Assembly: GCA_041906785.1 (NCBI GenBank)
Contig: JAYRIM010000028.1
Span: 121,661-185,660 of the forward strand
Direction of reading: 5' to 3'
DNA from: Candidatus Levyibacteriota bacterium
Lineage (GTDB): Bacteria > Patescibacteriota > Microgenomatia > Levybacterales > UBA12049
DNA length: 64,000 nucleotides
Shown here piece by piece: positions 12,998-36,504 of this stretch. The notes under the pieces were generated by a model that was not told the origin of the DNA, made no database searches, and saw nothing but the letters and a program-made list of their open reading frames with translations. The translations under genes were made by a program, and so were the position numbers. Each line of letters opens with the position of its first letter. Position 1 is the stretch's first letter.

Positions 12998-13917
12998 AAA
13001 AAAATATTGTTTTAACAGGTGGAGGAGGATTTATCGGTGCGACCTTAATTCGGAAAAGTATCAAGAAATATAATGTGCATGTCATAGCAAGGGAAGGCGG
13101 TTCATTATGGAGGTTAGACGATCTACAGAAAGATCTAACTATCCATACAGGATTACTTGAAGATTTACCAAAATTGACAAGGTTAATGCAAGAAATTCAG
13201 CCGAAAGCGATATTTCACCTTGCTACATATGGAGCTTATCCCTCACAAAATATTCCATTAAAAATGATCGATGTAAACGTGAAGGGAACAATGAATCTAT
13301 TAGAGAGCATTAAAAATGTTGAATATGACCAATGTATTGTAACAGGAAGTTCGTCAGAATATGGAAAAAAAGATAAAGAGATGCGGGAAAATGATTTTAT
13401 TGAACCAAATAATTATTATGCTGCTACAAAAGCAGCACAAACGCATTTATGCCAAGTTTTTTCAAAAACTAACAAAAAACCTTTACTCATTTTTCGTCTT
13501 TTTAATGTATATGGACCATTTGAAGAGAAAGGGAGATTGGTGCGAACAGTTATTGAATCTGTACTAAACAAAAAACCTATACCACTAGCTACTGGAAAAG
13601 AAGCAAGAGATTTTATTCATGTAGAAGACGTGGCAGATGCATTTTTACGAGGTATACATAAACGGACATTATATGGTGAAGTATTCAACATAGGTACTGG
13701 CAAGCAAACAACGATAAAGCAACTTGCTGAACATATAATCGACATTACAGGAATCAAGGTGCCTATCCAACTGAATGTTTATCCGGGACGAGAATGGGAT
13801 GCATTTCACTGGAAAGCAGATACAAAGAAAACAGAAAATGTGCTTGGTTGGAAAGCAAAATACTCTCTAGATGAAGGATTAAAGAAGACCATTGCATGGT
13901 ATAGGTTACAAAAATAG
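12994..13917 (+). CDS. NAD-dependent epimerase/dehydratase (SDR)
   Basis: MKKNIVLTGGGGFIGATL Rossmann motif; start overlaps the upstream gene (ATGA). Confidence 0.75.
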   Translation: MKKNIVLTGGGGFIGATLIRKSIKKYNVHVIAREGGSLWRLDDLQKDLTIHTGLLEDLPKLTRLMQEIQPKAIFHLATYGAYPSQNIPLKMIDVNVKGTMNLLESIKNVEYDQCIVTGSSSEYGKKDKEMRENDFIEPNNYYAATKAAQTHLCQVFSKTNKKPLLIFRLFNVYGPFEEKGRLVRTVIESVLNKKPIPLATGKEARDFIHVEDVADAFLRGIHKRTLYGEVFNIGTGKQTTIKQLAEHIIDITGIKVPIQLNVYPGREWDAFHWKADTKKTENVLGWKAKYSLDEGLKKTIAWYRLQK

Positions 13918-13918
13918 T

Positions 13919-14731
13919 ATGTCTAATTCAGAATTACATAAAGTTTCTAAAGAGATCGCATTATTAACACTTGAAATTTCTTATTTAGCAAAAACCGGAC
14001 ATGTTGGCTCTGCATTATCAATAGTAGATATTTTAACAGTGTTGTATTTCACGCAGTTAAACGTTACGCTTGAAAATTTATCCTCGGAAAAAAGAGATCG
14101 ATTTATTCTCAGTAAGGGCCACGCCGCTGCTGCGCTGTATGCGACTTTATATAAAAAAGGGATTTTATCAAAAAAGAAATTGTATAGCTTCGGTTCTGAT
14201 GAAGGAGGGTTATGTGAACATACAGAGATTGAAGATACAGGCATAGAGATGACAAGTGGTTCTTTAGGGCATGGGTTAGGTTTTGGTGTGGGCATTGCAT
14301 TAGGAATGAAGCTTGCAACTGTAAAAAGCCAGGTATATGTATTGATTAGTGACGGAGAGTGTGGAGAAGGCTCTGTATGGGAGTCGGCATATTTAGCCAG
14401 TAAATTAAGATTAGATAATTTGACAGTTATTATTGATAATAATAAATGGCAATGTTTTGGAAAGGTTTCAGACATTACAAATATTACTCCTTTTAGGCCT
14501 AAATGGGAATCATTCGGATGGCATGTAGAAGAGATAGAGGGGCACGATACGTCAGCAATTCGCAATTCATTTCAAAGAATCAAATTAGTAAAAGAAAAAC
14601 CTCATGTCATTATTGCTAATACTGTAAGTGGTAAGGGAATATCTATGATCGAAGACAAACTGATCGGTCATTATAAAGTCTTTACAGATGAGGAATATGT
14701 ATTAGCCAGAAAGGAAATTGAACAGCTATGA
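13919..14731 (+). CDS. transketolase, N-terminal (TPP-binding) subunit of a split transketolase
   Basis: GHVGSALSIVDILTVLYF ... SKGHAAAALYATL ... ISDGECGEGSVWE are hallmark transketolase N-domain motifs; ~270 aa. Confidence 0.85.
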   Translation: MSNSELHKVSKEIALLTLEISYLAKTGHVGSALSIVDILTVLYFTQLNVTLENLSSEKRDRFILSKGHAAAALYATLYKKGILSKKKLYSFGSDEGGLCEHTEIEDTGIEMTSGSLGHGLGFGVGIALGMKLATVKSQVYVLISDGECGEGSVWESAYLASKLRLDNLTVIIDNNKWQCFGKVSDITNITPFRPKWESFGWHVEEIEGHDTSAIRNSFQRIKLVKEKPHVIIANTVSGKGISMIEDKLIGHYKVFTDEEYVLARKEIEQL

Positions 14732-15681
14732 GGAAAGCCTTTATAAAAGCTTTATGCGAAATAGCAAAAAAAGACGAAAGAGTTGTACTCCTTACTGGTG
14801 ATTTAGGGTTTAACGTTTTAGAACCTTTTAAAGAACATTTCCCAGATAGATTTTTTAATATAGGTGTAGCCGAAGCAAATCTCGTAACTGTAGCCGCAGG
14901 TTTAGCTACTGCCGGTTATATTCCCTTAACGTACTCTATAGCTACATTTATGAGTATGAGACCTTTCGAACAGATACGAAACATGGTAAGTCTGCAGAAT
15001 CTAAACGTAAAAATAATAGCTGTTGGGGCAGGAATTTCCTACACAAAAGCTGGACCTACACATCATGCAATTGAAGATATTTCGCTTATGCGTTCTTTAC
15101 CGAACATGACTATTATCGCTCCTTCAGACCAAAAAGAAACATATCAAGCAACAAAAGCGATGCTAGCGTATTCAGGCCCTGTGTATTTCAGAATAGGAAG
15201 AAATCCTGCCGATAGTATTGTTATCCCAGAATCAACATTTATCATAGGTAGAGCGAGATTATTACAAAAAGGTGAGAAAATCGCATTATTGGCTACTGGT
15301 AATCAAGTAGAGATTGCATTTCAAGTTGCAAAAATACTAAAGCAATTAAATATTCAAGCGTCTATATATAGTTTTCCCACAGTTAAACCACTAGATAAAC
15401 AAACACTCAGCGAAATTTATTCTAGCCATGTAGTAATTGCTACTCTTGAGGATCATAGTATTACTGGGGGATTTGGTTCAGCGATTTGTGAAGATGTTTA
15501 TGAAGAACCGCTTGCTGTGTATCCTTCAATTGTACGCTTCGGATTTAAGCCTGGATATAGCAAATTGTCAGCATCATATAGCAAAATGATCGAAGAATAC
15601 AGTTTTTCTCCTTATCAAATTGCTGAGAGAATTCTACAAATTATGATGAAACAATTTTCTCTGCAGAACAATTCTCTTTAA
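14728..15681 (+). CDS. transketolase, C-terminal (pyrimidine-binding) subunit of a split transketolase
   Basis: FNIGVAEANLVTVAAGLA ... and C-terminal domain features; ATGA overlap with the N-subunit gene. Confidence 0.85.
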   Translation: MRKAFIKALCEIAKKDERVVLLTGDLGFNVLEPFKEHFPDRFFNIGVAEANLVTVAAGLATAGYIPLTYSIATFMSMRPFEQIRNMVSLQNLNVKIIAVGAGISYTKAGPTHHAIEDISLMRSLPNMTIIAPSDQKETYQATKAMLAYSGPVYFRIGRNPADSIVIPESTFIIGRARLLQKGEKIALLATGNQVEIAFQVAKILKQLNIQASIYSFPTVKPLDKQTLSEIYSSHVVIATLEDHSITGGFGSAICEDVYEEPLAVYPSIVRFGFKPGYSKLSASYSKMIEEYSFSPYQIAERILQIMMKQFSLQNNSL

Positions 15682-17439: not shown

Positions 17440-19131
17440 ATGAAGTTTCCAGGAAAAATATTTAAACATGATAGTAAATATTTCTTTTTTCTTCTCTTAG
17501 TGTGTCTAGTAGTTTTCTATAAATTATTTTTTACCTTTTATCAGCAAGATGAATGGCATGCTTTAGGCTTTATCATATCAAAGGGTTTCAGCTATATTTT
17601 TTCTCAAGCATCTTTGCTAGATATTCTTTTTCTTGAAAATAGACCTCTTGCTCGATTCTTAAATATTTTGTTTTTTGGTTTCCTTCCGTTTAATATAATA
17701 CCTTTATCATTATTTGCTATTACTGTTCACTCAATAAATGCATTCTTGATATTTAAAATTGCAAAGAAGTTAACAAATACGATATATTTCTCGCTATTAG
17801 GCTCGTTAATTTTCCTCATAAATGATACAAGTAAACAGGCTATTATTTGGTTCGGAGCTGTTACAGGGACGTTACTTTCTACGACAGGAATATTGTTGTC
17901 TGTTTATTTCTTTCTTTTATATCTTATAGAACATAAAAAAACAAAGGCATATGCAGCAGTTATTTTTATGATTTTATCATTAGGTTTTAAAGAAAGTGGG
18001 CTTTTTCTCGTTCTTTTTCTTCCTTGTATTGAACTTTTATACCGAATATATAAAGAACACTCGTGGAGGTTAAGTAAGATATCCATCGGTATTTTTTTAA
18101 TTGGATTGTTTTTTTTAGGAGTAAAATTTTTAAAATTATTCTTTCTGACACAGAACTATTCTGGATATGTAAGCAGTAATTCAGGGGGAGGGTTATATAA
18201 AATTGTTTGGGGATTTATTACATATCCGCTAGAAACTTTTTCTCAATTACTTATCCCCGATGAATATTTTTATCCTTATTCGCATAAACTAACAAATATT
18301 ATTTTTCCCTATTTTGATACAGTTGGTTATTCCGTACAAGTATCTGAAAAAGTAATGCTTGAATTACTATCGCTTTTACTGGCATTTTTAATACTTTTTC
18401 CTATGTTTCTTTTCTTATTAAGACAAAGAAATAAATTTCCTATACTGTTCAGCACAGTACTTTATATGTTATGTTTTATACCTTTTATAGTTATAAACAA
18501 AAGCTCTGCGTATTTTGAATCAAGATATTATTACACTTTTTTGATTGCCTTCTCATTAATAATTGCTTTATTTTTTTATCAGCTATCAATTGTTTTTCAT
18601 AAAACAGTAAAATCGAAAAGAAAGTTTAATGTTCTTAAAAGACTTGGTTTTATTATGTTTGTAACTTACTTTCTAATCCAAATTTCTTCAATATCCACTA
18701 AGCTCGATTATCAAGTAGAAAGAGCATCTACTCAAAGACCTATTCTTGAACAAATGATCTCGTCAGTTCCAAAATTATCTCTAAAACATATTTTCTACAT
18801 AACGAGTGATAGAGATTTTATAACTGAAAATAATCCATTACCATTCCAAAACGGGATAGGATATACCATTTTGACTTATTATGTCGCACGTACAAATGAT
18901 TTTGGGCATAAAAAATTGCTTAATAATAATTTTTTTTGGGAATTAGGTAATCAAGGGTATAGGGAATTGTATAATGGTTATGGGTTTGGTTTCTACACCG
19001 AATTACAAAAACTTTTATTAGATAAAAAAAAATATAATTTTCAAGAAAACGACATTACTTCTTTTTACTATGATTCTAAGAAAAATTCTCTTATAAACAA
19101 TACTAATACTATAAGAAAAAAATTGCATTAA
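17440..19131 (+). CDS. polytopic GT-C-type membrane glycosyltransferase (hypothetical)
   Basis: ~12 TM helices plus a C-terminal soluble domain; context. Confidence 0.4.
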   Translation: MKFPGKIFKHDSKYFFFLLLVCLVVFYKLFFTFYQQDEWHALGFIISKGFSYIFSQASLLDILFLENRPLARFLNILFFGFLPFNIIPLSLFAITVHSINAFLIFKIAKKLTNTIYFSLLGSLIFLINDTSKQAIIWFGAVTGTLLSTTGILLSVYFFLLYLIEHKKTKAYAAVIFMILSLGFKESGLFLVLFLPCIELLYRIYKEHSWRLSKISIGIFLIGLFFLGVKFLKLFFLTQNYSGYVSSNSGGGLYKIVWGFITYPLETFSQLLIPDEYFYPYSHKLTNIIFPYFDTVGYSVQVSEKVMLELLSLLLAFLILFPMFLFLLRQRNKFPILFSTVLYMLCFIPFIVINKSSAYFESRYYYTFLIAFSLIIALFFYQLSIVFHKTVKSKRKFNVLKRLGFIMFVTYFLIQISSISTKLDYQVERASTQRPILEQMISSVPKLSLKHIFYITSDRDFITENNPLPFQNGIGYTILTYYVARTNDFGHKKLLNNNFFWELGNQGYRELYNGYGFGFYTELQKLLLDKKKYNFQENDITSFYYDSKKNSLINNTNTIRKKLH

Positions 19132-19134: not shown

Positions 19135-21048
19135 ATGTTTACTTTTAGCGCAAAAGACTTACCATTTTTCTTCACAGAACAACTAGATAAATTTTCAATT
19201 ATACCTTTCGTTTGGGATTCTACCAGAGCAAATGGTTTTGGTGAAAATATTTCTTCTCTTTTATGGTTAAGAAGCTTTATATATATACCTTCTAGTTTTC
19301 TGCATAATCTTTTCAACTTTGATTGGTTCCAGATAACAATATTTTATTATTTTCTTTTTATTTTTTTTGCTCTGATTTCAATACGGACTTTTACATCTTT
19401 TTTTGAAATAAAAAATATCTTTATAAAGATATTTTTTGGAATAATTTTTATCACCAATACATATACTGCTATGCTTTTAGATGGTGGCCAATTGGGAGTT
19501 TTGTTGGCATACAGTTTAGTACCTCTCGTTTTTACACTTTTTTCAAATGTAGTTACGAAGAAAACACATAGATTTATTGATGTGATTGATGCCGGGATAA
19601 TACTAGCATTACAACTGCTTATAGATATCCGAATTGCATTACTTACAGTTTTCTGCATTTTTCTTTACTGGATTATCCATATTTTTCTATTTCCCGATAA
19701 AATAAATTTTTTAAAATTAATACTTAAATATAGAACTTCATCATTTATTATTGTATTTCTACTTCATCTGTTTTGGATAATTCCTTCATTAATAAGCTTT
19801 ATGACTTCTAGCCAATTCAATGTCCCATCGGATAGTAGACAAACCGGTCAATATTTTAGTTTTGCCAAATTTGAAAATGCTATCGCATTATTACATCCAA
19901 ATTGGCCAGAAAATATTTTTGGAAAAGTATATTTTATGAAACCTGAATTTCTCATTATTCCCCTTGCTGTTTTTTCAGTACTATTATTGATTGACTTAAG
20001 AAATAAGGAGAAAACTAAGAACATATTATTTTTTTGTCTTCTTAGTATCATTGGAATCTTTTTAGCGAAAGGGACAAATGAACCTTTTGGGTTTATATAC
20101 ACCTATATGCTTCACTATATTCCTGGATTTGTGTTCTTTCGAGATCCTACAAAATGGTATATATTGATCGCATTTTCATACTCTTTTTTATTATCGTTCG
20201 TAGTATCTACATTTGTTGGTTATATAAAAAGTAAACTGATTAAACAATGTATACTTCTGATAATCTTTTTAGTTTTTTTAAGTCCTTCGATTTCTGTAAT
20301 ACCGCCGGACAGAAATAGCGCACTTCGCATAAAAGAAGTTCCCTCGTCATATGTACAACTTAAAGATTTTTTAATTAATAAAGATTTTTCTCGAACATTC
20401 TGGATACCTGAACGCCAGACATTTGGTTATTATGATGCTATGCATCCAGCAATAAATGGCAATGAATACATGAAAGAATTTGTACCTGAGACTATCGCAA
20501 AGAAATTAATAAGTAAGAAATATGAATATATGTTTAAGGAACAATCTATTCGGTATGTTATTGTTCCTGAAGATACAAACGGTGAATTATTTCTTTCAGA
20601 TCGAAAGTTTGATCAAAGAAAATATAGAAAGGTAATTACGGCTCTGGATTCTATAGACTGGCTTAAGAAAATTGAAACATTTGGTTCAATACAAGTATAT
20701 GAGATTTATGAACCAATGACTCTTTTTTGGGATGCAAATACAAAAATGAATTTTCCGGGAAGCATGGTTAATCAGACTACTTACACAGTAAATGTAGCTA
20801 AACAAAACCGAACGAAACTTATCTTTTCAACTGGTTTTGATCCTCATTGGGAAGCAAGAATGAATGATAAAATAATCCATCCAAAATCTTATAAAACTTT
20901 AACAGCATTTAATCTGCCAACTGAAGCTAACGAGGTTTTTATCACTTATAATATTCAGCCTATAGTTAGATTTTGGTTTTTTAGTTCCTGTATGCTTTTC
21001 TTGCTGATCATTGTTGCAAGATATATAATGTGGAGGAGAAATATATGA
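19135..21048 (+). CDS. YfhO-like GT-C membrane glycosyltransferase
   Basis: N-terminal polytopic domain; C-terminal DPHWEARMNDK ... final TM resembles the YfhO C-terminus (DPGWKAxVDGK). Immediately followed by a GtrB/CsbB-like gene. Confidence 0.55.
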   Translation: MFTFSAKDLPFFFTEQLDKFSIIPFVWDSTRANGFGENISSLLWLRSFIYIPSSFLHNLFNFDWFQITIFYYFLFIFFALISIRTFTSFFEIKNIFIKIFFGIIFITNTYTAMLLDGGQLGVLLAYSLVPLVFTLFSNVVTKKTHRFIDVIDAGIILALQLLIDIRIALLTVFCIFLYWIIHIFLFPDKINFLKLILKYRTSSFIIVFLLHLFWIIPSLISFMTSSQFNVPSDSRQTGQYFSFAKFENAIALLHPNWPENIFGKVYFMKPEFLIIPLAVFSVLLLIDLRNKEKTKNILFFCLLSIIGIFLAKGTNEPFGFIYTYMLHYIPGFVFFRDPTKWYILIAFSYSFLLSFVVSTFVGYIKSKLIKQCILLIIFLVFLSPSISVIPPDRNSALRIKEVPSSYVQLKDFLINKDFSRTFWIPERQTFGYYDAMHPAINGNEYMKEFVPETIAKKLISKKYEYMFKEQSIRYVIVPEDTNGELFLSDRKFDQRKYRKVITALDSIDWLKKIETFGSIQVYEIYEPMTLFWDANTKMNFPGSMVNQTTYTVNVAKQNRTKLIFSTGFDPHWEARMNDKIIHPKSYKTLTAFNLPTEANEVFITYNIQPIVRFWFFSSCMLFLLIIVARYIMWRRNI

Positions 21049-21971
21049 TAAGTGTTGTAGTTCCAGTTTTTAATGAAGATGATGGCTTAGAAGCGTTTTA
21101 TACGAAGCTAAAATCTGTTCTTGGGCATTTTAAGGATGAACATGAAATTATCTTTATTGACGATGGATCTACTGACCAGACATTATTTAGATTAAAAGAA
21201 TTGAAAAAAAGGGACAAAACTCTTCGGATTTTTTCCTTCAGGAAAAATAAGGGTAAGTCTGAAGCATTAACATTAGCTTTTCAAAAAGCGCGAGGTGAAT
21301 ATATATTTACGCTCGATGCAGATTTAGAAGAAAATCCGGAAGAGCTTCAGAATTTACTGAAGAAAGCTCAAGAAGGGTGGGATATAGTTTCTGGTTGGAG
21401 AAAACATAGAAAACACTCTTTCGCTAGAGTTTATTCTTCTCGATTAGCGAACTATGTTCTCTCAAAATTATGGGGAATTCATTTACATGATATTAACTGC
21501 GGATTGAAAATATATTCAAAAGATGCTGCAAAGTCTCTGGAATTATATGGTGGTTTGTATCGTTTTATACCTATCATGGCGCATTTAAAAGGATTTAAAG
21601 TGACTGAAATTGTCGTAGAACATGAGAATAGAAAATTTGGAAAAGCAAAATTTGGTTTTCTAAAATTATGGAAAGATCTCCCAGATGCGTTCACAATTAT
21701 TTTTTTAACAAAATATGCTGAGCGACCGCTTCATTTTTTTGGGATGATTGGAGGTTTGCTTTTCACTTTTGGCTTTGCAATATTTTGTTATCTTAGTTTT
21801 ATTTGGTTTCAAGGAGAATCTATCGGTAGAAGACCTCTTTTCTTCGTTTGCATAGTGCTAATGTTAGCAGGTTTGCAAGTGTTTCTAACAGGTTTTTTAG
21901 CAGAACTTATTATTAATGTAACGCGAAAAGAAAAGTCTTTTTCAATAAAATATTCTTCAGATACTACATGA
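21045..21971 (+). CDS. polyprenol-phosphate sugar synthase (GtrB/CsbB/DPM1-like GT2 with two C-terminal TM helices)
   Basis: MISVVVPVFNEDDGL ... IFIDDGSTDQT ... TLDADLEENP plus two C-terminal TM helices. Confidence 0.8.
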   Translation: MISVVVPVFNEDDGLEAFYTKLKSVLGHFKDEHEIIFIDDGSTDQTLFRLKELKKRDKTLRIFSFRKNKGKSEALTLAFQKARGEYIFTLDADLEENPEELQNLLKKAQEGWDIVSGWRKHRKHSFARVYSSRLANYVLSKLWGIHLHDINCGLKIYSKDAAKSLELYGGLYRFIPIMAHLKGFKVTEIVVEHENRKFGKAKFGFLKLWKDLPDAFTIIFLTKYAERPLHFFGMIGGLLFTFGFAIFCYLSFIWFQGESIGRRPLFFVCIVLMLAGLQVFLTGFLAELIINVTRKEKSFSIKYSSDTT

Positions 21972-22186
21972 AAATACAAGATATATTTTTTTTAGGAATC
22001 TTTCTTTTTCTTATTATAAAATCTAACCCTAAACTTTCTGCTTCTTTTGGTCTTATTTGTATTGTACTGTCGATTCCCCTTTTTAGCTTATGGATATTTT
22101 TTACTGCTCAAAGACTTATCCGGTATGCTACTGCTTTTTTTCTTCTTTCAATTCTGCTTCATTTATATTACGCTAGAAACAAGTGA
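21968..22186 (+). CDS. small 2-TM membrane protein (possible GtrA-like flippase remnant)
   Basis: 72 aa, two hydrophobic helices, start overlaps the upstream gene's stop (ATGA). Confidence 0.3.
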   Translation: MKIQDIFFLGIFLFLIIKSNPKLSASFGLICIVLSIPLFSLWIFFTAQRLIRYATAFFLLSILLHLYYARNK

Positions 22187-22189: not shown

Positions 22190-22729
22190 ATGAAAATTGG
22201 AATAGATATTTCACAAACTGCTTATGAAGGAACCGGAGTTGCAAATTTCCTTGAAAGATTGGTAGAAACTCTACTAAAAATTGATGAAACGAATGAATAC
22301 ATTTTATTTTATTCATCGCTTCGGAAAAAATTTCCAATTTCCAATTTCCAATTTCAAATTTCAAATAAAAACTTCACAATAAAACAGTTTAAATTACCTC
22401 CAAGCTTACTTGATATATTGTGGAATAAGTTGCATATTGTTCCCATTGAAACATTGATTGGAGATGTAGATGTATTTATATCTTCAGACTGGACTCAACC
22501 ACCTACAAGTAAAGCAAAGCAGGTGACAATTCTCTATGACTTAATTGTGTATACATATCCTGAAGAAACAGACAAAAAAATTGTTGAAGTGCAAAAAAGA
22601 AGACTACAGTGGGTAAAAAAAGAATGTGATCAGATACTATGCATTTCAGAATCCACAAAAAATGATGCAATGAGAATTCTAGGCATAGAAAAGGAGAGGT
22701 TACAGGTTATTTATCCTGGTGTACAATAA
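22190..22729 (+). CDS. GT4 glycosyltransferase, N-terminal (acceptor) domain only. Either a truncated tandem paralog or a pseudogene remnant. Contains a 35-nt heptamer repeat tract.
   Basis: MKIGIDISQTAYEGTGVANF ... ends at YPGVQ*, exactly where the GT4 C-terminal domain would begin. The next gene is a full-length paralog that has its own N-terminal domain. Confidence 0.55.
   Translation: MKIGIDISQTAYEGTGVANFLERLVETLLKIDETNEYILFYSSLRKKFPISNFQFQISNKNFTIKQFKLPPSLLDILWNKLHIVPIETLIGDVDVFISSDWTQPPTSKAKQVTILYDLIVYTYPEETDKKIVEVQKRRLQWVKKECDQILCISESTKNDAMRILGIEKERLQVIYPGVQ
22331..22365 (+). repeat. heptanucleotide tandem repeat tract (3x TTTCCAA + 2x TTTCAAA = 35 nt) inside the GT4 N-domain ORF
   Basis: Read directly from the sequence; encodes FPISNFQFQISN. 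The 7-nt unit is not a multiple of 3. Confidence 0.85.
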
Positions 22730-22733
22730 GAAT

Positions 22734-23885
22734 ATGATTATCGGAATTGATGGAAATGAAGCAAATGTTGCACATAAAGTTGGCATCAGCGAGTATGCTT
22801 TTGAACTGTTGTCACAGTTCAAAAATATCAAATATCAAATATCAAATATCAAATATCAAATTTATCTTAAAGATAAACCACGAATTGATTTACCAGCTGA
22901 ATCTGAATATTGGAAGTATCGGGTATTTGGACCGAAAAAACTATGGACGCAATGGAGATTACCGCTTGAGTTATTCGCTCATAGACCCCGACCAAATGTT
23001 TTTTTTACACCTTCTCATTATGCCCCGCGTTTCTCGCCAATTCCACGTGTGGTTTCGGTCATGGATCTTTCTTATATCCATTTTCCAGAAATGTTTAAAA
23101 AAGACGATTTATATCAACTTGTTAACTGGACAAAGTACTCAATCCAAAAATCAAAAGCTATCATTACAATCAGTGAATCAAGCCGAAATGATATAATTGA
23201 AGAGTATGGTGTTTCGAAAGAAAAAGTTCACGTTGTGTATCCAGGAATTAAAGAAATAGTAGATTTACAACCGCATATTTACGCTATGAGTGAATTACAT
23301 ACGAAATACAATATAAATAAAAATTACATTCTTTTTGTTGGAACACTCCAGCCTCGAAAGAATATTGCTCGCCTTATTGAAGCTTTTGCAAAAACGCTGA
23401 AAAATGCGGATCTAGACGCTGAAAAACGCGGAAATTTAGAATTGGTAGTGGTAGGAAGAAAGGGATGGTTATATGAAGAAATTTTAACTGCGCCTGAAAA
23501 ATATAGTATAAAAGAGCATGTTCGATTCCTCGATTATGTACCCGATGAAGATTTACCTTTACTGTATAAACAAGCTTTGTTTTATATACTTCCCAGTCTC
23601 TATGAAGGATTTGGCCTGCCTGTGCTTGAAGCGATGCAATATGAGTGTCCAGTAATAACAAGCAACATTTCGAGTCTTCCAGAGGCTGCAGGGGAGGCGG
23701 CGCTATATATTGACCCTCATAATGTTGATGATATAGCTGAGAAAATGGAAAAACTATTAAAGAGTCCTTCATTACGTAAAGAATTAATTGAGAAAGGGAA
23801 AAAGCAAGTAAAAAAATTTAGTTGGGAAAAAGCTGCAAAAGAAACACTTGCTATTTTAGGAGAAGTAGCTAAAAACAAAGTGTGA
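22734..23885 (+). CDS. GT4 glycosyltransferase (full length; contains a 35-nt heptamer repeat tract)
   Basis: MIIGIDGNEANVAHKVGISEY ... EGFGLPVLEAMQYECPVITSNISSLPE (the EX7E region). The internal ATG at 22734 is preferred over the GTG at 22719. Confidence 0.8.
   Translation: MIIGIDGNEANVAHKVGISEYAFELLSQFKNIKYQISNIKYQIYLKDKPRIDLPAESEYWKYRVFGPKKLWTQWRLPLELFAHRPRPNVFFTPSHYAPRFSPIPRVVSVMDLSYIHFPEMFKKDDLYQLVNWTKYSIQKSKAIITISESSRNDIIEEYGVSKEKVHVVYPGIKEIVDLQPHIYAMSELHTKYNINKNYILFVGTLQPRKNIARLIEAFAKTLKNADLDAEKRGNLELVVVGRKGWLYEEILTAPEKYSIKEHVRFLDYVPDEDLPLLYKQALFYILPSLYEGFGLPVLEAMQYECPVITSNISSLPEAAGEAALYIDPHNVDDIAEKMEKLLKSPSLRKELIEKGKKQVKKFSWEKAAKETLAILGEVAKNKV
22825..22859 (+). repeat. heptanucleotide tandem repeat tract (5x ATATCAA = 35 nt) inside the full-length GT4
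   Basis: Read directly; encodes NIKYQISNIKYQI; non-triplet unit. Confidence 0.85.
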
Positions 23886-23965: not shown

Positions 23966-24569
23966 TTTTAAACATATGAAGGATAAAAACGGAAACCAAC
24001 TCACTCAAAAAGAGTTGCAGCGAAAATTGAGAAATCGATTAGCCACAGTAAGTTTAGAATTTACTGTGTACTTTCTACATCTTGTCGGATGTATCCCCAG
24101 TCATACTATTCGTCGTTTTTTCTATTCATTAGCTGGTTTACAGATTGGAGAAGGTTCTACGATTCATATGCATGCCACATTGTACAATCCAATGAATATT
24201 ACTATTGGCCAGGATACTTTAATAGGTGAGGGAGTTGTTCTAGATGGGAGAGATAAACTTTCTATCGGAGATCATGTCGATATGGCTTCTGAAGTTATGA
24301 TTTACAATGCTGAACATGATGTTCAAAGTGAAGATTTTCATGCAGTCACAGCAGCTGTCCGTGTTGAAGATTATGTATTTATAGGACCTCGTGCAATCAT
24401 ATTACCCGGAGTAACTATTGGAAAAGGTGCTGTAGTAGGGGCAGGTGCTGTAGTCACAAAAACAGTAAATCCTTTTGAAATAGTAGGTGGTGTTCCTGCA
24501 AAAGTTATAGGTGAAAGGAAACAAAAAGATCTTCATTATAAACTCGGTAGAGCAGCATGGTTCAGGTAA
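23931..24569 (+). CDS. hexapeptide-repeat sugar O-acetyltransferase (left-handed beta-helix)
   Basis: Repeated [LIV]G-x4 hexapeptides: IGPRAIILPGVTIGKGAVVGAGAVV. ORF starts at a TTG; the true start may lie downstream. Confidence 0.7.
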   Translation: MLGTIKQYNNSNFKHMKDKNGNQLTQKELQRKLRNRLATVSLEFTVYFLHLVGCIPSHTIRRFFYSLAGLQIGEGSTIHMHATLYNPMNITIGQDTLIGEGVVLDGRDKLSIGDHVDMASEVMIYNAEHDVQSEDFHAVTAAVRVEDYVFIGPRAIILPGVTIGKGAVVGAGAVVTKTVNPFEIVGGVPAKVIGERKQKDLHYKLGRAAWFR

Positions 24570-24605
24570 AAGTATTTAGTATAAAGTATTATGTATTAAG
24601 TATTT

Positions 24606-25451
24606 ATGCAATTAATTTCTATTTTAATTTTGAGCTACAATACTAAAGATTTGCTCAGAATTTGTTTGCAATCTATCTATAAAAATCTATCAAACGTTTC
24701 GTTTGAAGTGATTGTACTAGACAACGCATCTAAAGACGGTAGTCCTGAAATGATTAGAAAAGAATTTCCTGATACGAAAATAATAGTTTCTGAAAAAAAT
24801 TTGGGATTTGCCAAGGGAATGAATGAAGCTGTCAAAAAAGCAAAAGGAGACTATTTGTTATTCCTTAATTCAGATGCTATCTTAACAGACTCTACAGTAT
24901 TTAATATGCTTACATTTTCAGAGTCATCGGCAGATGTTGCTATAGTTGGTGGACAGTTACTCGATGCTGATGGTACTCTACAGCGATCCTTTGGAAATTT
25001 TTATACTCTTCCCATGGCGTTTATTCTGTTATTCGCTGGAGAGAAGGTGGAATTAGCATTACAAAATACCAAAACAATAAAGCAGGTTGATTGGGTAAAT
25101 GGAGGTTTTATGCTTATTAAAAAAGATATTTTTGAGAGAGTAAAAGGGTTTGATGAACGGTATTTTATGTATGTAGAGGATATGGATTTATGTTATAGAG
25201 TAAAACAAGCAGGATATAAAACCTTTTTTTACCCCACAGCAACTGCTATTCATACAAATCAAGGCAGCTCAAACCGTTCATTTGCTATTCAACACATTCA
25301 TAAAGGATTACTCCTTTTTTATAAAAATCATAAATCTTATCTAGAATATCTGATTCTTAAAGCACTTATTCTTTTAAAAGAAACAATATTAACGTTTATA
25401 GGAATGATAACTGGTAACTCATATTTGAAAACGACATATAAACATACATAA
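24606..25451 (+). CDS. GT2 family glycosyltransferase
   Basis: ISILILSYNTKDLL ... VIVLDNASKDGS ... FLNSDA ... YVEDMDLCYR. Confidence 0.8.
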   Translation: MQLISILILSYNTKDLLRICLQSIYKNLSNVSFEVIVLDNASKDGSPEMIRKEFPDTKIIVSEKNLGFAKGMNEAVKKAKGDYLLFLNSDAILTDSTVFNMLTFSESSADVAIVGGQLLDADGTLQRSFGNFYTLPMAFILLFAGEKVELALQNTKTIKQVDWVNGGFMLIKKDIFERVKGFDERYFMYVEDMDLCYRVKQAGYKTFFYPTATAIHTNQGSSNRSFAIQHIHKGLLLFYKNHKSYLEYLILKALILLKETILTFIGMITGNSYLKTTYKHT

Positions 25452-25454: not shown

Positions 25455-28400
25455 ATGAAATATTTTAAATGGTTAAAAGATAATATTCTTTTTGTTATTA
25501 CGCTTTTCTTGTTAGCTTTTATCCCGCTCTATCCAAAGAAGCCATTGTTAGACATTAAAAACACTTGGGTTTATATAAGAGCTGAAGATTTTATCGTAGT
25601 TTTAGTTATGGCTTTTTGGATATTTCTGCTTATACGGAAAAAAATTACTCTGAGAACACCGTTAACACTGCCTATCTTATTTTTTTGGCTCGCAGGGGCT
25701 ATAGCTACTATCCATGGTGTAATCCTTATTTTTCCTACAATTGCAAATGTTTTTCCCAATGTTTCATTTCTCAGTTTTCTAAGACATATAGAATACATGA
25801 GTTTATTTTTCATAGCGTATAGCGGAATGAAACATAAGCGTTTTTTACCCATTGTTATTACAACATTAACCATTACTCTTCTACTCGTCATCGGTTATGG
25901 TTTCGGACAAAAATATTTAGGATTTCCTGCATATCTAACAATGAACGAGGAGTTTGCGAAAGGAATTCCAATACGATTATCAGCTTTATCAAGAGTTCCT
26001 TCAACATTTGCTGGACATTATGATTTAGCTGCGTATCTGGTTTTAATTATTCCTATACTTGCAAGTTTAATTTTCGGCTTTCGAAATTGGTTGATAAAAA
26101 TAAGTCTCCTAATAACAATCGTGTTGGGTTTTGGATTACTTTTTATGACAGTATCACGTGTTTCATTTTTTGTTCTCTTTCTTGCACTTTTTATCGTACT
26201 CTTCTTTCATAAAAAACGATTTGTTATTTTCTCAATTCCTATTATTGCAGTATTAACGTTTATTTTTATTTCTCTTCAACCATCTCTCTTTGATAGGTTT
26301 ACAAGCACTGTTAAAGATGTAGATGTTCTTATAGACGCAAAAACCGGAGAAGCCTTAGGTCATGTAAAGTACCTATCAGCAGAACAATTTAAAAATAAAA
26401 CTATTTGGCAGCAAGATGTTCGTAGTAAGAATGAAATAGCAGCGATCATAGGTGATGAAAAAGATGAAGTACTAGAAGCATCTCCCTCAGCTTTATTTCC
26501 CTATGAAAATCTCACTCCGGAAGTTCCTGTTTTTATTGCAACTAACATATCAACTGGCGAGAATTTACCACAGGGAACAGGGTATATAAACCTTTCACTT
26601 TCTCCAGTAACAAAAAAACTCGGGTGGTTCATTTATGAACGACAATCAAATCCAGAAAAGTCTATATCTGAAAAAGTCTATGCATTAAATGGAACGTTTT
26701 TAATTAAAAGAGCAGCTGCATATGATCTATCATTTACAACACGATTTCAAGGGGAATGGCCAAACACAATAAAAGCATTTAAGAGAAATATTTTCTTCGG
26801 AAGCGGGTACGGCTCTGTGAGCCTCGCTGTTGATAATAATTATCTTCGGATGTTAGGGGAAATTGGATTATTAGGTCTACTGTCTTTTATAGGTATTTTT
26901 GTGATTATCGGAATTTATATCCGTAAAATCCTCCCTGACGTTGATTCGAATTTGGCAAAAAGTTTTGTTATTGGATTCGTAGCCGGAGTTGTCGGATTAT
27001 TTTTTAATGCATTTTTGATTGATGTTTTCGAAGCATCCAAAATTGCGTTTAGCTTATGGCTTTTGGCAGGAATAACAGTCGGACTTCTAGATTTATATAA
27101 GAAAAAGGATATAAATCTCAGCCAGGAGTTTTTACATGCAATTACTTCTCCTTTAGCAATTATTGTTTATTTAATTACTGCAGTTATAGTTCTTTATACA
27201 CCAATGATCAGTAACTATTTTATAGGTGATGATTTCACATGGTTTAGATGGGCTGATATGGGAGGAAACATTCTTACTTATTTTACACAAGCAGATGGTT
27301 TTTTTTATCGACCTGGAACAAAAATTTATTTTTATCTTATGTATTCAGTTTTTTGGCTAAACCAATCCGTATATCACGCCGTTTCTTTAGTGCTACATTG
27401 TATGATTATTATAGAGTTCTTTTTACTTGCAAAAAAAATCTTTGGGAGAACGCTTTCAGCGTCTCTCGCGGCGTTTCTTTTTCTTATTATTAGCGGATAT
27501 TTTGAAAGTATTTTTTGGATCTCATCTACAGGACATCTTTTCTCTTCCGTTTTTATTTTAGGAAGTCTTCTTTTTTATATTGTTTGGGAAGATAATAAAA
27601 AAACACTTTATTTTATTGCCTCAATTCTATCATTTATATGTAGTCTTCTCTTTTATGAATTAGGTATCGTTACGCCTCTTCTTATTTTATTGTACGCAGC
27701 ATATAAAAGAGAGACATATAATATTTCTTTTATACTTAAGAGAATAGAGTATGTATTCTATATAATTCCATTGATTTTCTATTGGCTTATTCGATATGCT
27801 GCTCAAAGCCATTGGCTAAACGGGGATTATAACTATAATATTATAAAACTACCTTTTAACGCGATTGGTAATAGTATTGGTTATTTCTCTTTAACATTAT
27901 TTGGTCCTATCGTCTTACCTTTTTATGAAAAATTAAGAGATTTCTCAAAGCTTCATGTCGGTTTGACAATGATCGTTGTTTTTTCTGCTTCTGTCCTAGT
28001 GTTCTTTTTATATAAAACACAAAGAAAAAAGATTAATAAAAGAGATAATAGTATTTTTCTTTTTGGTTTTTTCTTTTTTGTTATATCCTTAATACCATTC
28101 TTAGGATTAGGAAATATCACTTCTCGCTATAGCTATTTAGCTTCATTGGGATTAATTATAATTCTTGTTCTTGTCTTAGAGAAAATATATAACCTTTTAT
28201 CAACGAGTGGAAAAAACATCGCTTTTGGAAGTATGGTAGTTGTTCTTATGGTATTCAGTCTTTTCCATATCATGCAAATCCAGCAGATTCACAGTGATTG
28301 GTATGAAGCTGGGCAAAAGGTAAAGAGATTTTTTATAGTAATTGATGAACTATATATTGATGAATGGTCACGGGAACCACTTTCATTGTATTTTGTAAAT

Positions 28401-28628
28401 GTTCCTATACGGCATGGAGACGCATGGGTATTTCCGGTTGGTTTAAAAGATGCTTTATGGTTCTCATTTAAGAATCCTCAATTATCTGTCAACACCACAA
28501 CATCAGCGAACGATGCATTGAATGCAGCTGCGCATTCTGTAAATCCGAAAGTCTTCGAATTTAATGAAGATGGAACACTTGTAGAGCTAACAAGAGTTAA
28601 AGGAAAAATTATAAAAATTAACCGCTAA
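25455..28628 (+). CDS. 1057-aa giant membrane protein: an O-antigen ligase/polymerase-like (Wzy_C) domain fused to a second polytopic GT-C-like domain and a C-terminal soluble domain
   Basis: FGSGYGSVSLAVDNNYLRMLGEIGLLGL is Wzy_C/WaaL-like; at least 20 TM helices in total; C-terminal ~130 aa hydrophilic. Confidence 0.5.
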   Translation: MKYFKWLKDNILFVITLFLLAFIPLYPKKPLLDIKNTWVYIRAEDFIVVLVMAFWIFLLIRKKITLRTPLTLPILFFWLAGAIATIHGVILIFPTIANVFPNVSFLSFLRHIEYMSLFFIAYSGMKHKRFLPIVITTLTITLLLVIGYGFGQKYLGFPAYLTMNEEFAKGIPIRLSALSRVPSTFAGHYDLAAYLVLIIPILASLIFGFRNWLIKISLLITIVLGFGLLFMTVSRVSFFVLFLALFIVLFFHKKRFVIFSIPIIAVLTFIFISLQPSLFDRFTSTVKDVDVLIDAKTGEALGHVKYLSAEQFKNKTIWQQDVRSKNEIAAIIGDEKDEVLEASPSALFPYENLTPEVPVFIATNISTGENLPQGTGYINLSLSPVTKKLGWFIYERQSNPEKSISEKVYALNGTFLIKRAAAYDLSFTTRFQGEWPNTIKAFKRNIFFGSGYGSVSLAVDNNYLRMLGEIGLLGLLSFIGIFVIIGIYIRKILPDVDSNLAKSFVIGFVAGVVGLFFNAFLIDVFEASKIAFSLWLLAGITVGLLDLYKKKDINLSQEFLHAITSPLAIIVYLITAVIVLYTPMISNYFIGDDFTWFRWADMGGNILTYFTQADGFFYRPGTKIYFYLMYSVFWLNQSVYHAVSLVLHCMIIIEFFLLAKKIFGRTLSASLAAFLFLIISGYFESIFWISSTGHLFSSVFILGSLLFYIVWEDNKKTLYFIASILSFICSLLFYELGIVTPLLILLYAAYKRETYNISFILKRIEYVFYIIPLIFYWLIRYAAQSHWLNGDYNYNIIKLPFNAIGNSIGYFSLTLFGPIVLPFYEKLRDFSKLHVGLTMIVVFSASVLVFFLYKTQRKKINKRDNSIFLFGFFFFVISLIPFLGLGNITSRYSYLASLGLIIILVLVLEKIYNLLSTSGKNIAFGSMVVVLMVFSLFHIMQIQQIHSDWYEAGQKVKRFFIVIDELYIDEWSREPLSLYFVNVPIRHGDAWVFPVGLKDALWFSFKNPQLSVNTTTSANDALNAAAHSVNPKVFEFNEDGTLVELTRVKGKIIKINR

Positions 28629-32359: not shown

Positions 32360-33499
32360 ATGAAAATCGGGATTGATGTTCGACTCTGGAATGAGACTGG
32401 AGTAGGTCGGTATATTCGGAATTTGGTTAAAAACTTGCATGAGATTGATAAAGTTAATGACTATATTTTATTTGCAAGAGCAACTGATGTAGAAAGTATT
32501 AAGTATTATGTATCAAGTATTAAGTGGAAAATAGTTGTTGTAAATATTCGATGGCACTCTTTTAAAGAACAGTTGAAGTTTCCCCAAATTCTCTATAGAG
32601 AGAATCTAGATCTTATGCATTTTCCTTATTTCTCCGTTCCATTTAACTATAGAAAACCTTTTATTGTAACCATACATGATCTTATCATTTATCATTATTC
32701 GACAGGAAAAGCATCGACGCTTCCTTTACCTTTTTATCAGTTGAAACGTTTAGGATATAAATTTGCTATAAAGCAAGCTATTCATAACGCTAAAAAAGTA
32801 ATTGTCCCTCTGCAATCGGTTAAAGAGGACGTTATAGAAACCTTACAAGCTGATCCAAAAAAGATTATAGTAACTCAAGAAAGTGTTGATGAAGAAATTA
32901 ACAATGCTAATAGACAAATGATCAATCCACAATTAAAATCAGAGAATTATTTTCTTTATGTTGGTAATGCTTATCCACATAAAAATATTCAAACGTTACT
33001 GCAGGCGTTCGAATCATTTAAAAAACAAATTGTCCATCATAACGTTAAGCTATTTTTAGTTGGAAAAAAAGATTATTTTTATTCTCAGTTAGAAAACAAT
33101 TTAAAAGAAAAACAGGGAAATGCAGTACATATTTTTCATACCATTGATGATTCTATGTTACATGAATTGTATGATAATGCGATTGCTCTCATAGCACCAT
33201 CTTTTATAGAAGGTTTTGGTTTAGTACCCTTAGAGGCAATGGCGAACAATTGTCTGGTAATAGCGTCTGATATTCATGCGCATCGAGAAGTTTGTCAAGA
33301 CGCTGCGGTTTACTTTCCTGCTCATGATCAATCAGAATTAACAAATAGAATGATTGAAGTTTTTACACAGACTAATAATTCAATATTTGAAAATTTGAGA
33401 CAAAAAGGATTGAAAAGAGTAAAAAACTTTTCCTGGAAGCGTATGACTCAGGAAACATTGAAAATCTATGAAAGTTGCATTAGTGTACGACAGAGTTAA
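32360..33499 (+). CDS. GT4 family glycosyltransferase (carries an in-frame AGTATTAAGT repeat insert)
   Basis: MKIGIDVRLWNETGVGRYIRNL ... EGFGLVPLEAMANNCLVIASD. Confidence 0.8.
   Translation: MKIGIDVRLWNETGVGRYIRNLVKNLHEIDKVNDYILFARATDVESIKYYVSSIKWKIVVVNIRWHSFKEQLKFPQILYRENLDLMHFPYFSVPFNYRKPFIVTIHDLIIYHYSTGKASTLPLPFYQLKRLGYKFAIKQAIHNAKKVIVPLQSVKEDVIETLQADPKKIIVTQESVDEEINNANRQMINPQLKSENYFLYVGNAYPHKNIQTLLQAFESFKKQIVHHNVKLFLVGKKDYFYSQLENNLKEKQGNAVHIFHTIDDSMLHELYDNAIALIAPSFIEGFGLVPLEAMANNCLVIASDIHAHREVCQDAAVYFPAHDQSELTNRMIEVFTQTNNSIFENLRQKGLKRVKNFSWKRMTQETLKIYESCISVRQS
32494..32526 (+). repeat. AGTATTA(A/T) repeat insert inside the GT4, near-identical to intergenic 24583-24607
   Basis: AAGTATTAAGTATTATGTATCAAGTATTAAG (in-gene) versus AAAGTATTATGTATTAAGTATTT (intergenic upstream of the GT2 at 24606). 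Confidence 0.65.
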
Positions 33500-34553
33500 T
33501 AAATGGGGCGGGGCAGAAAGAGTACTTTTAGCCTTTCACGAATTATTTCCAGATGCTCCTCTATATACATCGGTTTATAATCCTGAGACTGCTCCATGGG
33601 CAAGTGCGTTTACAATAAAGACTTCGTTCCTACAAAATCTGTCATATTTTCGTAATAAACATGAACTGCTTCCTCTCCTTATGCCAATCGCTTTCGAAAG
33701 CTTTATTTTTGATGAATACGATCTTGTTATTTCTATAACAAGTGAATTTGCGAAAGCAATAATTACGAAACCTGGGACAAAGCATATTTGCTATTGTTTA
33801 ACACCTACCCGCTATTTATGGAGTGGATATGATGAATATTTTAAAAACAAAGTTTTACGGACTTCTACGAAATTCTTAATACGAAATCTACGAAAATGGG
33901 ATCGAATTGCAGCACAAAGACCAGATGCATATATCGCTATATCGAAAGAAGTACAGGGGAGAATTAAAAAATATTATGGAAGAGAATCAGAAGTTGTGTA
34001 TCCACCAGTAAGTTTACAAAATTCAAGATTTAAGATTCAAGATTTAAGAATAAATAAAAAAGAACAATATTTTTTAATTGTGTCACGGCTTGTAAGATAT
34101 AAAAGAATCGATCTTGCGATACGAGCATGCAATGAACTGCAATTTCCACTTAAAATTATTGGTATTGGAAGTGAGGAAAAAAGATTAAGGACAATTGCTG
34201 GTCCTACAATTGAATTTGTGGGCTCTGTAGATGAGGAAACACTTGCGCGATACTATTCTCAATGTCAAGCACTTCTTTTCCCTGGATACGAAGATTTTGG
34301 ATTAGCAATGGTTGAAGCACAGCTTTTCGGAAAGCCAGTGATCGCATTCCATAAAGGTGGTGCAGAGGAGATAGTTCTTCATGGAAAAACAGGTTTACTC
34401 TTCGATTCACAAACAGTTGCATCTTTGTCCTCTGTTTTAGGAGCATTTGAAAAAAATGACTTTGATAAGGAAGTTATTATGAAACACGCAGCTCAATTTA
34501 ATAAAGAACATTTTAAGAAAGCTTTCTTATCTGAATTAAAGAAATTATTATGA
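33468..34553 (+). CDS. GT4 family glycosyltransferase
   Basis: MKVALVYDRVNKWGGAERVL ... EDFGLAMVEAQLFGKPVIAFHKGGAEE. Confidence 0.8.
   Translation: MKVALVYDRVNKWGGAERVLLAFHELFPDAPLYTSVYNPETAPWASAFTIKTSFLQNLSYFRNKHELLPLLMPIAFESFIFDEYDLVISITSEFAKAIITKPGTKHICYCLTPTRYLWSGYDEYFKNKVLRTSTKFLIRNLRKWDRIAAQRPDAYIAISKEVQGRIKKYYGRESEVVYPPVSLQNSRFKIQDLRINKKEQYFLIVSRLVRYKRIDLAIRACNELQFPLKIIGIGSEEKRLRTIAGPTIEFVGSVDEETLARYYSQCQALLFPGYEDFGLAMVEAQLFGKPVIAFHKGGAEEIVLHGKTGLLFDSQTVASLSSVLGAFEKNDFDKEVIMKHAAQFNKEHFKKAFLSELKKLL
34021..34052 (+). repeat. 2x 14-nt direct repeat (ATTCAAGATTTAAG) inside GT4 33468..34553
   Basis: AAATTCAAGATTTAAGATTCAAGATTTAAGAATAAA encoding SRFKIQDLRINKK in the inter-domain linker. 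Confidence 0.6.
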
Positions 34554-36371: not shown

Positions 36372-36375
36372 AAGT

Positions 36376-36425: not shown

Positions 36426-36504
36426 GCCCGCCTGCAACGTTTTGCGTAGCAATGCGGGCAGGTGGGTTGGGAATTAAAAAATAAAGTGTAGTTACATTTG
36501 ACAT

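Follow-up and report, generated by a model that had tools for sequence, protein, structure and literature searches.

What does a bacterium do with half of a glycosyltransferase gene? To our knowledge, GT-B glycosyltransferases are thought to need both of their Rossmann domains, and the sole well-known exception is the Alg13/Alg14-type split, in which both halves persist. In the window studied here (the whole 64-kb stretch of DNA that was analysed, with a G+C content of 34%), an ORF that covers just the N-terminal half of a GT4 enzyme sits immediately in front of a full-length GT4 gene. The first-pass annotation of this ORF left two answers side by side, that is, a duplication remnant or pseudogene, or a deliberately separate module. 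The features of the locus that are needed for the argument are as follows.

21030..21971, + strand: ArnC/PgfS-like polyprenyl-phosphate GT2 with a C-terminal membrane segment (PF00535; ArnC and PgfS are the best NCBIfam matches, both below cut-off)
21968..22186, + strand: hydrophobic ORF of 72 aa taken from the ORF list, overlapping the GT2 stop by 4 nt and ending 3 nt before the half-GT4 gene
22190..22729, + strand: half-GT4 gene, 179 aa, with the GT4 N-terminal (acceptor-side) Rossmann domain only (Pfam, AlphaFold2 model, Foldseek, homologs)
22329..22366, + strand: heptamer tract AATTTCC/AATTTCA, 5.4 copies, encoding KFPISNFQFQISN in the loop after beta-2 (TRF, 96% matches)
22730..22733, + strand: 4-nt spacer GAAT that separates the stop of the half-GT4 from the start of the full GT4, read from the sequence and without a terminator-like site
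22734..23885, + strand: full-length GT4 of 383 aa with N- and C-domains, called ORF2 below (PF13439 and PF00534, the latter with E 1.2e-41)
22823..22861, + strand: heptamer tract AAATATC, 5.6 copies, in the N-domain loop of ORF2 equivalent to that of the half-GT4 (TRF, 100% matches)
23976..24569, + strand: WcaF-like hexapeptide-repeat acetyltransferase, third gene of the block (Pfam Hexapep; NCBIfam WcaF family, below cut-off)
24606..25451, + strand: GT2 glycosyltransferase, conserved fourth gene (PF00535)
25455..28628, + strand: polytopic membrane protein of 1057 aa, conserved fifth gene, the window copy being without a Pfam match

The half gene runs from an ATG at 22190 to a TAA at 22727-22729, and its product ends with ...VIYPGVQ*. 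The first-pass annotation described this ORF as the acceptor-binding domain of a GT4 only, ending at YPGVQ* and followed 4 nt later by a full GT4, and both the Pfam scan and the sequence itself bear the description out. The sole Pfam match of the 179-aa protein is PF13439 (Glyco_transf_4), which covers residues 16-178 and profile positions 3-166 of 170 with a score of 33.6 bits against a cut-off of 28.5. In the same scan the protein matches neither of the C-domain families PF00534 and PF13692, and it ends 1 residue past YPGV; the Alg14 family PF08660 is likewise unmatched, PF13439 alone being returned at E ≤ 0.01. We have also built an AlphaFold2 model from 27 family members (pLDDT 79.8, pTM 0.80), which shows one alpha/beta Rossmann-type domain with seven strands of at least three residues according to DSSP. 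The PDB structures that Foldseek ranks first for this model are N-domains of GT4 enzymes, namely those of MshA, GlgM, sucrose-phosphate synthase, PglA, and WbnH. These matches come from the fold comparison alone, as a PDB sequence search with the half-family profile has returned nothing at E ≤ 0.01. No obvious hydrophobic anchor is seen by eye at the N-terminus. Overall, a Glyco_transf_4-type N-terminal Rossmann domain is recognized by Pfam and by AlphaFold2/Foldseek, whereas the donor-binding C-domain (Glycos_transf_1, with its EX7E motif) is missing from the half protein and from 80 orthologs. The half protein is therefore a GT4-derived domain protein and not a complete GT4 enzyme.

The half gene could still be one broken piece of its neighbour, and the first-pass annotation had argued against this since the neighbour starts with an N-domain of its own. 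Our comparison agrees with that argument. ORF2 has both domains, with an EGFGLPVLE stretch that is read as the GT4 EX7E-type motif, and the N-domains of the half protein and ORF2 are just 29% identical over 89 aa. This low identity also rules out a recent duplication of ORF2's N-domain as the source of the half gene. The frame of ORF2 is open for a short distance before the ORF2 ATG (from about 22690), and we have considered a programmed frameshift or stop read-through into ORF2. Among the orthologs, however, the stop codon of the half gene varies (TAA, TGA, TAG), its frame relative to ORF2 varies too, and the spacing between the two genes ranges from -4 to more than 1900 nt. Because the stops, spacing, and frame all vary, and because other genes are inserted between the two, a conserved fusion by frameshift or read-through is excluded.

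The half protein is not a sporadic product of one genome. A search of 5.8 billion proteins has yielded 2146 homologs, and the best 120 protein clusters are all 173-195 aa long, 66-76% identical, and end at YPG[IV]. In GTDB, where one genome represents each species, relatives are encoded in 461 species-representative genomes; the best 80 of these are mostly Candidatus Levybacteria, and the nearest relatives of the window itself are metagenome-assembled genomes of Candidatus Levybacteria and other Microgenomates (Patescibacteria). We called ORFs at the loci of these 80 genomes, which were picked by match quality and are thus biased against OFF alleles. All 80 loci carry an ORF of 174-211 aa that ends at or a few residues from YPG[IV] and is without a C-domain match. 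The first-pass annotation had reasoned that its view would fall if relatives had a single intact gene here and this genome a recent nonsense mutation; actually, 80 of 80 loci show the same truncated ORF. The half-GT4 proteins make up a family that is conserved and is typical of Candidatus Levybacteria (Microgenomates, Patescibacteria).

We have further compared the conservation of the half protein with that of its neighbour in 75 genomes. In pairwise comparison, the half protein averages 64.6% identity, as compared with 57.5% and 61.5% for the N-domain and the C-domain, respectively, of the adjacent GT4. Its conservation exceeds that of the neighbour's N-domain in 78% of the genome pairs, and that of the neighbour's C-domain in 73%; the pairwise divergence of the half protein and that of the neighbour's C-domain are weakly correlated (r = 0.32). 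At the nucleotide level, the median pS of the half gene is 0.77, i.e., synonymous sites are saturated, while the median pN is 0.23. The two least saturated pairs have a dN/dS value of 0.13; over the usable pairs the median is 0.19 and the range about 0.13-0.27, so that the half gene is under strong purifying selection. That is, the relaxed selection and the disrupted or variable ORFs among relatives that mark a pseudogene are not observed. Since the ORF is intact in 80 species, is more conserved than its neighbour, and has a low dN/dS, the half gene is not a pseudogene. Of the two answers left side by side at the outset, the remnant or pseudogene fails against this purifying selection and the same truncation in 80 species genomes, and the separate module stands.

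As to its origin, we have searched 1.84 billion representative proteins for full-length relatives. The nearest ones, of about 360-385 aa, are 50-54% identical to the half protein over the whole N-domain, and these full-length Microgenomates GT4s include P0123, P0126, P0128, and P0131. The genomic context was read for P0126 and P0131, the contigs of P0123, P0128, and P0136 being too short or uninformative. In locus L089, the gene directly downstream of P0126 encodes a GT4 of 362 aa with 42% identity to ORF2 (E 4e-103), and in L091, P0131 is followed by an ORF starting MIIGIDGNEANVEKKVG..., which is clearly an ORF2 ortholog. The intact tandem pair that the first-pass annotation proposed to look for at orthologous loci is thus present in L089 and L091, and from these two pairs of full-length genes we derive a pair of complete GT4 genes as the ancestral state. 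The half gene therefore goes back to the upstream gene of such a pair, from which the C-domain was cleanly lost long ago. A plausible route to this loss is suggested by another GT4 of the window (33468-34553), in which a heptamer tract (34017-34049) directly follows VYPPV, exactly at the N/C linker. If that tract slips by 1-2 units, the product has ~190 aa and the N-domain only, and tract slippage at the N/C linker may have removed the C-domain in a similar way.

The family has also changed in specific residues. In an alignment of 119 half proteins with 100 full-length relatives, position 97 (in F-H-S-S-D-W) is His in 76 of the 100 full-length proteins, and I, V, or L in all 119 halves. Similarly, position 116 (in T-[IV]-H-D-L) is His in 94 of the 100 but Tyr in 119 of 119 halves; ORF2 itself carries Met at this second position. 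Two more distant half-size proteins, P0122 and P0124, retain His116 and may be independent truncations. On the other hand, E126, T127, C151, I152, and A160 are invariant or nearly so in the halves only. That is, the cleft residues typical of the closest full-length relatives are lacking in the half family. In the AlphaFold2 model, the replaced and the half-specific residues are located at the C-terminal ends of beta-4, beta-5, and beta-6, and the C-terminal strand ends of a GT-B N-domain are the side that faces the inter-domain cleft. This pattern in the model fits the idea that residues linked to catalysis may have been given up and that new constraints may have been gained on the same face. 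This face, which is conserved, would by now function in docking or in binding a ligand. Docking to a free C-domain is equally compatible with such a face.

The gene neighbourhood places the half gene in a larger conserved block. An ORF2 ortholog is found downstream, on the same strand and within 3 kb, in 74 of 82 loci. The ArnC-like GT2 lies upstream of the half gene in 68 of the 82, the acetyltransferase occurs in 73 (~1.7 kb beyond the start of the half gene), the second GT2 in 62 (at +2.3 kb), and the large membrane protein in 61. The orthologs of this membrane protein in L005-L007 are marked as PF04932 (Wzy_C). The 72-aa ORF (21968..22186) matches nothing in Pfam or NCBIfam, and ORFs of 68-81 aa occupy its position in many loci. 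A scan for promoters and terminators has given counts no higher than those of shuffled sequence, with nothing between the half-GT4 and ORF2.

The distance between the half gene and ORF2 is often very short: the gap is no more than 10 nt in 38 of the 74 distinct loci, eight of which show an ATGA overlap. Other genes lie between the half gene and the ORF2 ortholog in 17 of the 74. The large gaps are filled by small inserted genes, including mutually similar ORFs of 122-129 aa, short ORF pairs that resemble toxin-antitoxin modules, and others. In L009, a 7-kb insertion with enolase and PPDK genes splits the pair, and the ORF2 ortholog is kept 7.4 kb downstream. Because of these intervening genes, tight coupling of the half gene to ORF2 is not obligatory.

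The first-pass annotation had pointed to the Alg13/Alg14-type split as a precedent for half enzymes that function in trans, and such an enzyme needs a donor half. We have therefore looked for ORFs made of the C-domain only. None is present in the 64-kb window (phmmer and HMM searches, and Pfam on 30 further window ORFs), nor, by phmmer and HMM again, in the ~1.3 Mb around the half gene in the 80 genomes. Two short C-domain matches were rejected, as the one in L070 is cut by the locus edge and the one in L026 is a frameshifted GT4. A search with the C-domain profile of the nearest full-length relatives returns mostly full-length proteins, plus short ones that are mostly on small contigs. Of the few short matches on longer contigs, the others of which are on 3-40 kb contigs, we looked up one, P0343; it lies on the 18-kb contig L094 and is broken by a scaffold gap. 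The profile search has thus given no credible family of stand-alone C-halves, and in the window the adjacent gene is a two-domain GT4 where an Alg13-like partner would have been expected. The Alg13/Alg14 analogy is therefore not supported in the form in which it was put forward. An unlinked C-half elsewhere in the genome, outside the scanned loci, is possible though unsupported.

The half gene carries a heptamer tract of its own, as the first-pass annotation had seen, and we have located it at 22329-22366 with 5.4 copies of AATTTCC. Such tracts are enriched in the window at this period specifically: five period-7 tracts of at least 3.5 copies are found, versus none in 30 Markov simulations. 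At the same copy threshold, periods 5, 6, and 9-11 have none, period 8 has one, and period 4 has two, where the simulations average about 1. Heptamer tracts are present in four of the window's five GT4-type genes, and the tract of the GT4 at 32360-33499 is in the equivalent loop. Tracts of this kind are not confined to GT4 genes, as intergenic DNA and the housekeeping gene mraW have them as well. In the model of the half protein, the tract loop belongs to the least confident part (residues 41-60, pLDDT 59).

Among 51 analysable orthologs, 28 have at least three tandem heptamers in the same loop, and the remaining ones have a non-repetitive, PxFAK-type loop in that position. The repeat units differ among the orthologs (AATTTCC, AATTTCT, AATTTTC, AATTCAA, AAATCTC, AATATCC, AAGATTT), while the copy number is nearly constant at 4.3-4.7. 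This distribution shows that the tract of the half gene has been maintained for a long time with turnover of the array.

The first-pass annotation had further suggested that tract length toggles between the half protein and a longer read-through. We have simulated slips from -3 to +3 heptamers, and the suggestion has to be given up. Adding or removing one or two heptamers in the half gene leads to stops at aa 54-68 without any fusion, and ±3 heptamers alter the loop length alone, by 7 aa; the stop at 22727 is never reached. In ORF2, changes of 1-2 copies in its own tract truncate the protein to 40-158 aa. The half-gene tract could at most switch the half protein off, and it could never lengthen it. 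It does share the features of an SSR contingency repeat, namely an intragenic position, a unit that is not a multiple of 3, and a frame shift upon slippage. All 80 orthologs are in frame, with the reservation that choosing loci by match quality selects against OFF alleles. A candidate for a natural OFF allele made by a clean slip, P0125 (163 aa), matches the half family only from the tract onward, but its 1.6-kb contig of 2x coverage has unrelated sequence upstream, and it should be a chimera or rearrangement. In addition, repeated k-mers account for the fact that the Logan contig L001 stops within the tract of ORF2.

Considering these results together, we hold, with a probability of about 55%, that the half gene encodes a functional, non-catalytic GT4 N-domain subunit, which has come from an old full-length pair and works with ORF2. 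In an ancestral tandem pair of full-length GT4s, the upstream gene has lost its entire donor-binding C-domain at the YPG[IV] boundary, through a clean and ancient deletion or truncation. The remaining half protein, being devoid of a C-domain, should neither bind a nucleotide-sugar donor nor carry out transfer by itself. Most likely it would be made together with ORF2, by translational coupling, in one cell-envelope glycan operon with the order ArnC-like GT2, small membrane ORF, half-GT4, GT4, WcaF-like acetyltransferase, GT2, and Wzy_C-like protein. Its most likely role would be that of a non-catalytic subunit, which could dock on the GT4 or on a lipid-linked acceptor via the cleft-side face, and docking might give stability, membrane or acceptor targeting, or specificity. 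The heptamer tract is an old in-frame microsatellite in a surface loop, where a slip of 1-2 units would turn the half protein off. This reading is built on the domain content, truncation point, conservation, synteny, tandem-pair origin, residue replacements, and slip effects described above, from which we infer that the half gene is expressed, coupled to and physically partnered with ORF2, and non-catalytic.

Other explanations account for part of the same observations. The half protein may act without ORF2 as an autonomous binding or regulatory protein, which sequesters or presents a lipid-linked intermediate or scaffolds the operon enzymes. The strong purifying selection and the new family-specific invariant residues would suit such a protein, separation from ORF2 is tolerated (17 of 74 loci, and 7 kb in L009), and the synteny spans the whole operon and not the GT4 alone. 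Nevertheless, the ORF2 ortholog co-occurs almost universally, the gap is no more than 10 nt in half of the loci, and the ancestral state is a GT4-GT4 pair, so that we regard an autonomous protein as doubtful, although it is the least doubtful of the alternatives. The split enzyme of the Alg13/Alg14 type, in which the half-GT4 is the acceptor half and is joined in trans by a donor C-half encoded elsewhere in the genome, deserves attention for the reason that the most conserved residues of the half face the cleft, and it is on this side that a C-domain would dock. GT-B splits are known to work in trans (Alg13/Alg14 and bacterial homologues), and the search for a C-half covered the 64-kb window and ~1.3 Mb around the half gene, which is less than whole genomes. 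Still, neither the window nor the 80 loci contain a stand-alone C-domain ORF, and the profile search adds no credible match. Gene fission normally leaves adjacent halves, but here the C-domain DNA is gone and a 4-nt spacer is left, and two His conserved in the active relatives are lost; a split enzyme is thus quite unlikely. As for a functionless pseudogene or duplication remnant, the absence of the catalytic half and of those two His is all that speaks for it. An ORF that is intact with the same end in 80 species and more conserved than the neighbouring enzyme, dN/dS values of 0.13-0.27 with saturated synonymous sites, and the newly invariant residues make it hardly credible.

The heptamer tract raises a different kind of alternative, namely that slippage turns the half-GT4 and the neighbouring GT4s on and off and so varies the surface glycan. 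In favour of this are a unit length indivisible by 3, the position of the tract within the 5' third of the ORF, and the stops at aa 54-68 that ±1-2 units produce. Period 7 is specifically enriched, with tracts in four of the five GT4-type genes of the window, and the differing units in the same loop of 28 of 51 orthologs point to ongoing turnover; moreover, Haemophilus, Campylobacter, and Neisseria are well-known cases of SSR-driven switching of glycosyltransferase genes. However, the copies are few (about 4.3-5.4) and their number is nearly constant across species, every one of the 80 orthologs is in frame (albeit with a locus choice biased against OFF alleles), tract length was not seen to vary within a population, and the occurrence of tracts in intergenic DNA and mraW suggests that they may be a genome-wide mutational feature. 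We take phase variation to be unlikely on balance, and it would be compatible with the subunit explanation instead of exclusive of it. A more elaborate scheme is that the free N-domain docks in trans on the C-domain of ORF2 and competes there with ORF2's own N-domain, so that one donor domain would serve two acceptor domains and give two products, with the tract as a stochastic on/off switch of the surface glycan. We mention this scheme as speculation, and we think it very improbable.

An ultra-small bacterial lineage with little spare genome has long kept the acceptor-side half of a GT4 under a constraint stronger than that on the adjacent enzyme, and such long retention under strong constraint implies that a lone GT-B half-domain does have a function, and a non-catalytic one. 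As a subunit of ORF2, the half protein would be a compact natural model for how a GT-B N-domain recognizes a partner, an acceptor, or the membrane. About 2000 database entries named 'glycosyltransferase' would then not be transferases by themselves, which calls for caution among annotators. In addition, heptamer tracts recur at one and the same loop in several GT4s, and this offers a test case for repeat-mediated switching of surface glycans in CPR. If docking in trans and the switch both prove true, they would represent a new way to build GT-B specificity and, as far as our literature search has shown, the first phase variation described in the Candidate Phyla Radiation. For CPR bacteria, our literature search has found no report of heptamer repeats, of phase variation, or of such a family, and it has found nothing on stand-alone GT4 N-domains.

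Comparison with known systems helps to place the half-GT4. SSR contingency loci have been described in glycosyltransferase genes of Haemophilus, Campylobacter, and Neisseria (PMC2651432, PMC8437040, PMC5084427). Like those loci, the half gene has its repeat near the 5' end, with a unit that is not a multiple of three and slippage that shifts the frame. It differs from them in having ~5 copies of a 7-nt unit with a conserved copy number, and in that no out-of-frame alleles are seen among 80 orthologs. The host differs as well, being a free-living or episymbiotic groundwater-type CPR bacterium in contrast to the pathogens of these three genera.

Within the GT4s of Microgenomates, the full-length proteins P0123, P0126, P0128, and P0131 resemble the half family with 50-54% identity over the whole N-domain, and P0126 and P0131 (L089 and L091) are, like the half gene, directly upstream of an ORF2 ortholog. 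Unlike the half family, these proteins have kept a C-domain with the EGFGLP stretch and mostly the residues His97 and His116.

Among split GT-B enzymes, Alg14 (with Alg13), Cps14F/Cps14G, EpsE/EpsF, and PssD/PssE are of the GT1/GT28 type. As in the Alg14-type halves, the half-GT4 is an N-terminal GT-B Rossmann half encoded by its own small gene in a glycan operon, and is presumably inactive alone. The Alg14-type halves belong to the Alg14/MurG-type family (PF08660), whereas the half-GT4 is GT4-type and matches PF13439 only. In all the cases we know of, Alg14-type proteins are accompanied by an adjacent gene for the complementary C-half; in contrast, the neighbour of the half-GT4 is a complete two-domain GT4 and no C-half has been found. 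A different precedent is given by GtfB/Gtf2, the non-catalytic GT-B-like partner of the GT4 GtfA/Gtf1 in the glycosylation of streptococcal serine-rich-repeat proteins. The half-GT4 may, by analogy with GtfB, be a dead paralogue that is encoded beside an active GT4 and works as its subunit, with the difference that GtfB keeps both Rossmann domains and the half-GT4 one only. Overall, the half-GT4 would appear to resemble the GtfB-type dead partners in its mode of action and Alg14 in its architecture.

In the window, tandem repeats with a period of 7 are enriched (5 observed against 0 expected), while most of the other periods show no enrichment. The tracts considered here are distributed as follows.

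Heptamer tracts in the window
34017-34049, about 4.7 copies of CAAGATT/AAGATTT, inside the GT4 gene 33468-34553
32494-32525, inside a third GT4 gene (32360-33499), in the same post-beta-2 loop as in the half-GT4
24570-24604, just 5' of the start codon of the GT2 gene
36373-36426, two adjoining arrays, 3' of the Bac_transf priming-transferase gene
48092-48123, in the mraZ-mraW spacer
48368-48398, within mraW

Mutational bias, regulation and switching are all candidate causes of this recurrence. The tract at 34017-34049 lies exactly at the linker between the N- and C-domains of its GT4, after VYPPV. When slips of 1-2 units were simulated, the gene yielded a product of ~190 aa containing the N-domain only. 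That is, judging from these simulated slips, the length of the tract would toggle this gene between half and full enzyme, unlike the situation in the half-GT4 (22190..22729). This observation suggests a route by which the half-GT4 family may have arisen.

Among more distant relatives (55-56% identity), P0122 and P0124 are apparently half-size, at 182 and 191 aa. Both also end at the YPG/YEG boundary and both have retained His at position 116. They may stem from separate truncation events or be early offshoots of the half-GT4 family.

In P0125 (L093 1-180), encoded on a 1.6-kb contig with 2x coverage, the similarity to the half-GT4 family starts exactly at the tail of the heptamer tract (…GNFQS), and the sequence upstream is unrelated; the junction reflects either chimeric assembly or rearrangement at the tract. 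L001, a contig from the Logan assembly of the same sample, ends within the perfect 39-nt heptamer tract of the full GT4 directly downstream of the half-GT4, at about window position 22852. This break is most simply an effect of repeated k-mers and gives no evidence for tract-length polymorphism. In the Levybacteria chromosome OY970292.1 (L026, ~17700-19000), a GT4 gene that also carries a heptamer-coded peptide, ISNFKFQISN, is split by a frameshift within the C-domain; the frameshift may have arisen as an error in sequencing or assembly, or the gene may be a genuine pseudogene.

In eight genomes, an inserted gene of 122-129 aa separates the half-GT4 from the full GT4, lying precisely between the two.

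Inserted genes in the spacer
L011, 2442-2831
L051, 4760-5128
L064, 10559-10927
L078, L080, L083, L086 and L087, in this same position

Their products are alike, and by eye they look like putative proteins of the four-helix-bundle or rRNA-intervening-sequence-protein kind. Other genomes carry toxin-antitoxin-like pairs here, and small selfish genes seem to favour this spacer as an insertion site. In L040, the 47 nt from the half-GT4 stop (4006) to the next ATG (~4054) are filled by six copies of an 8-nt tandem repeat, AAATTGCT.

A further pair of ORFs in the window concerns a transketolase.

ORFs of a possible split transketolase
13892-14731, N-terminal (TPP-binding) part only
14728-15681, overlapping ORF of 317 aa, presumably the rest of the transketolase

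If the second ORF is indeed the remainder, this would be a split transketolase, another two-gene enzyme in the source genome.
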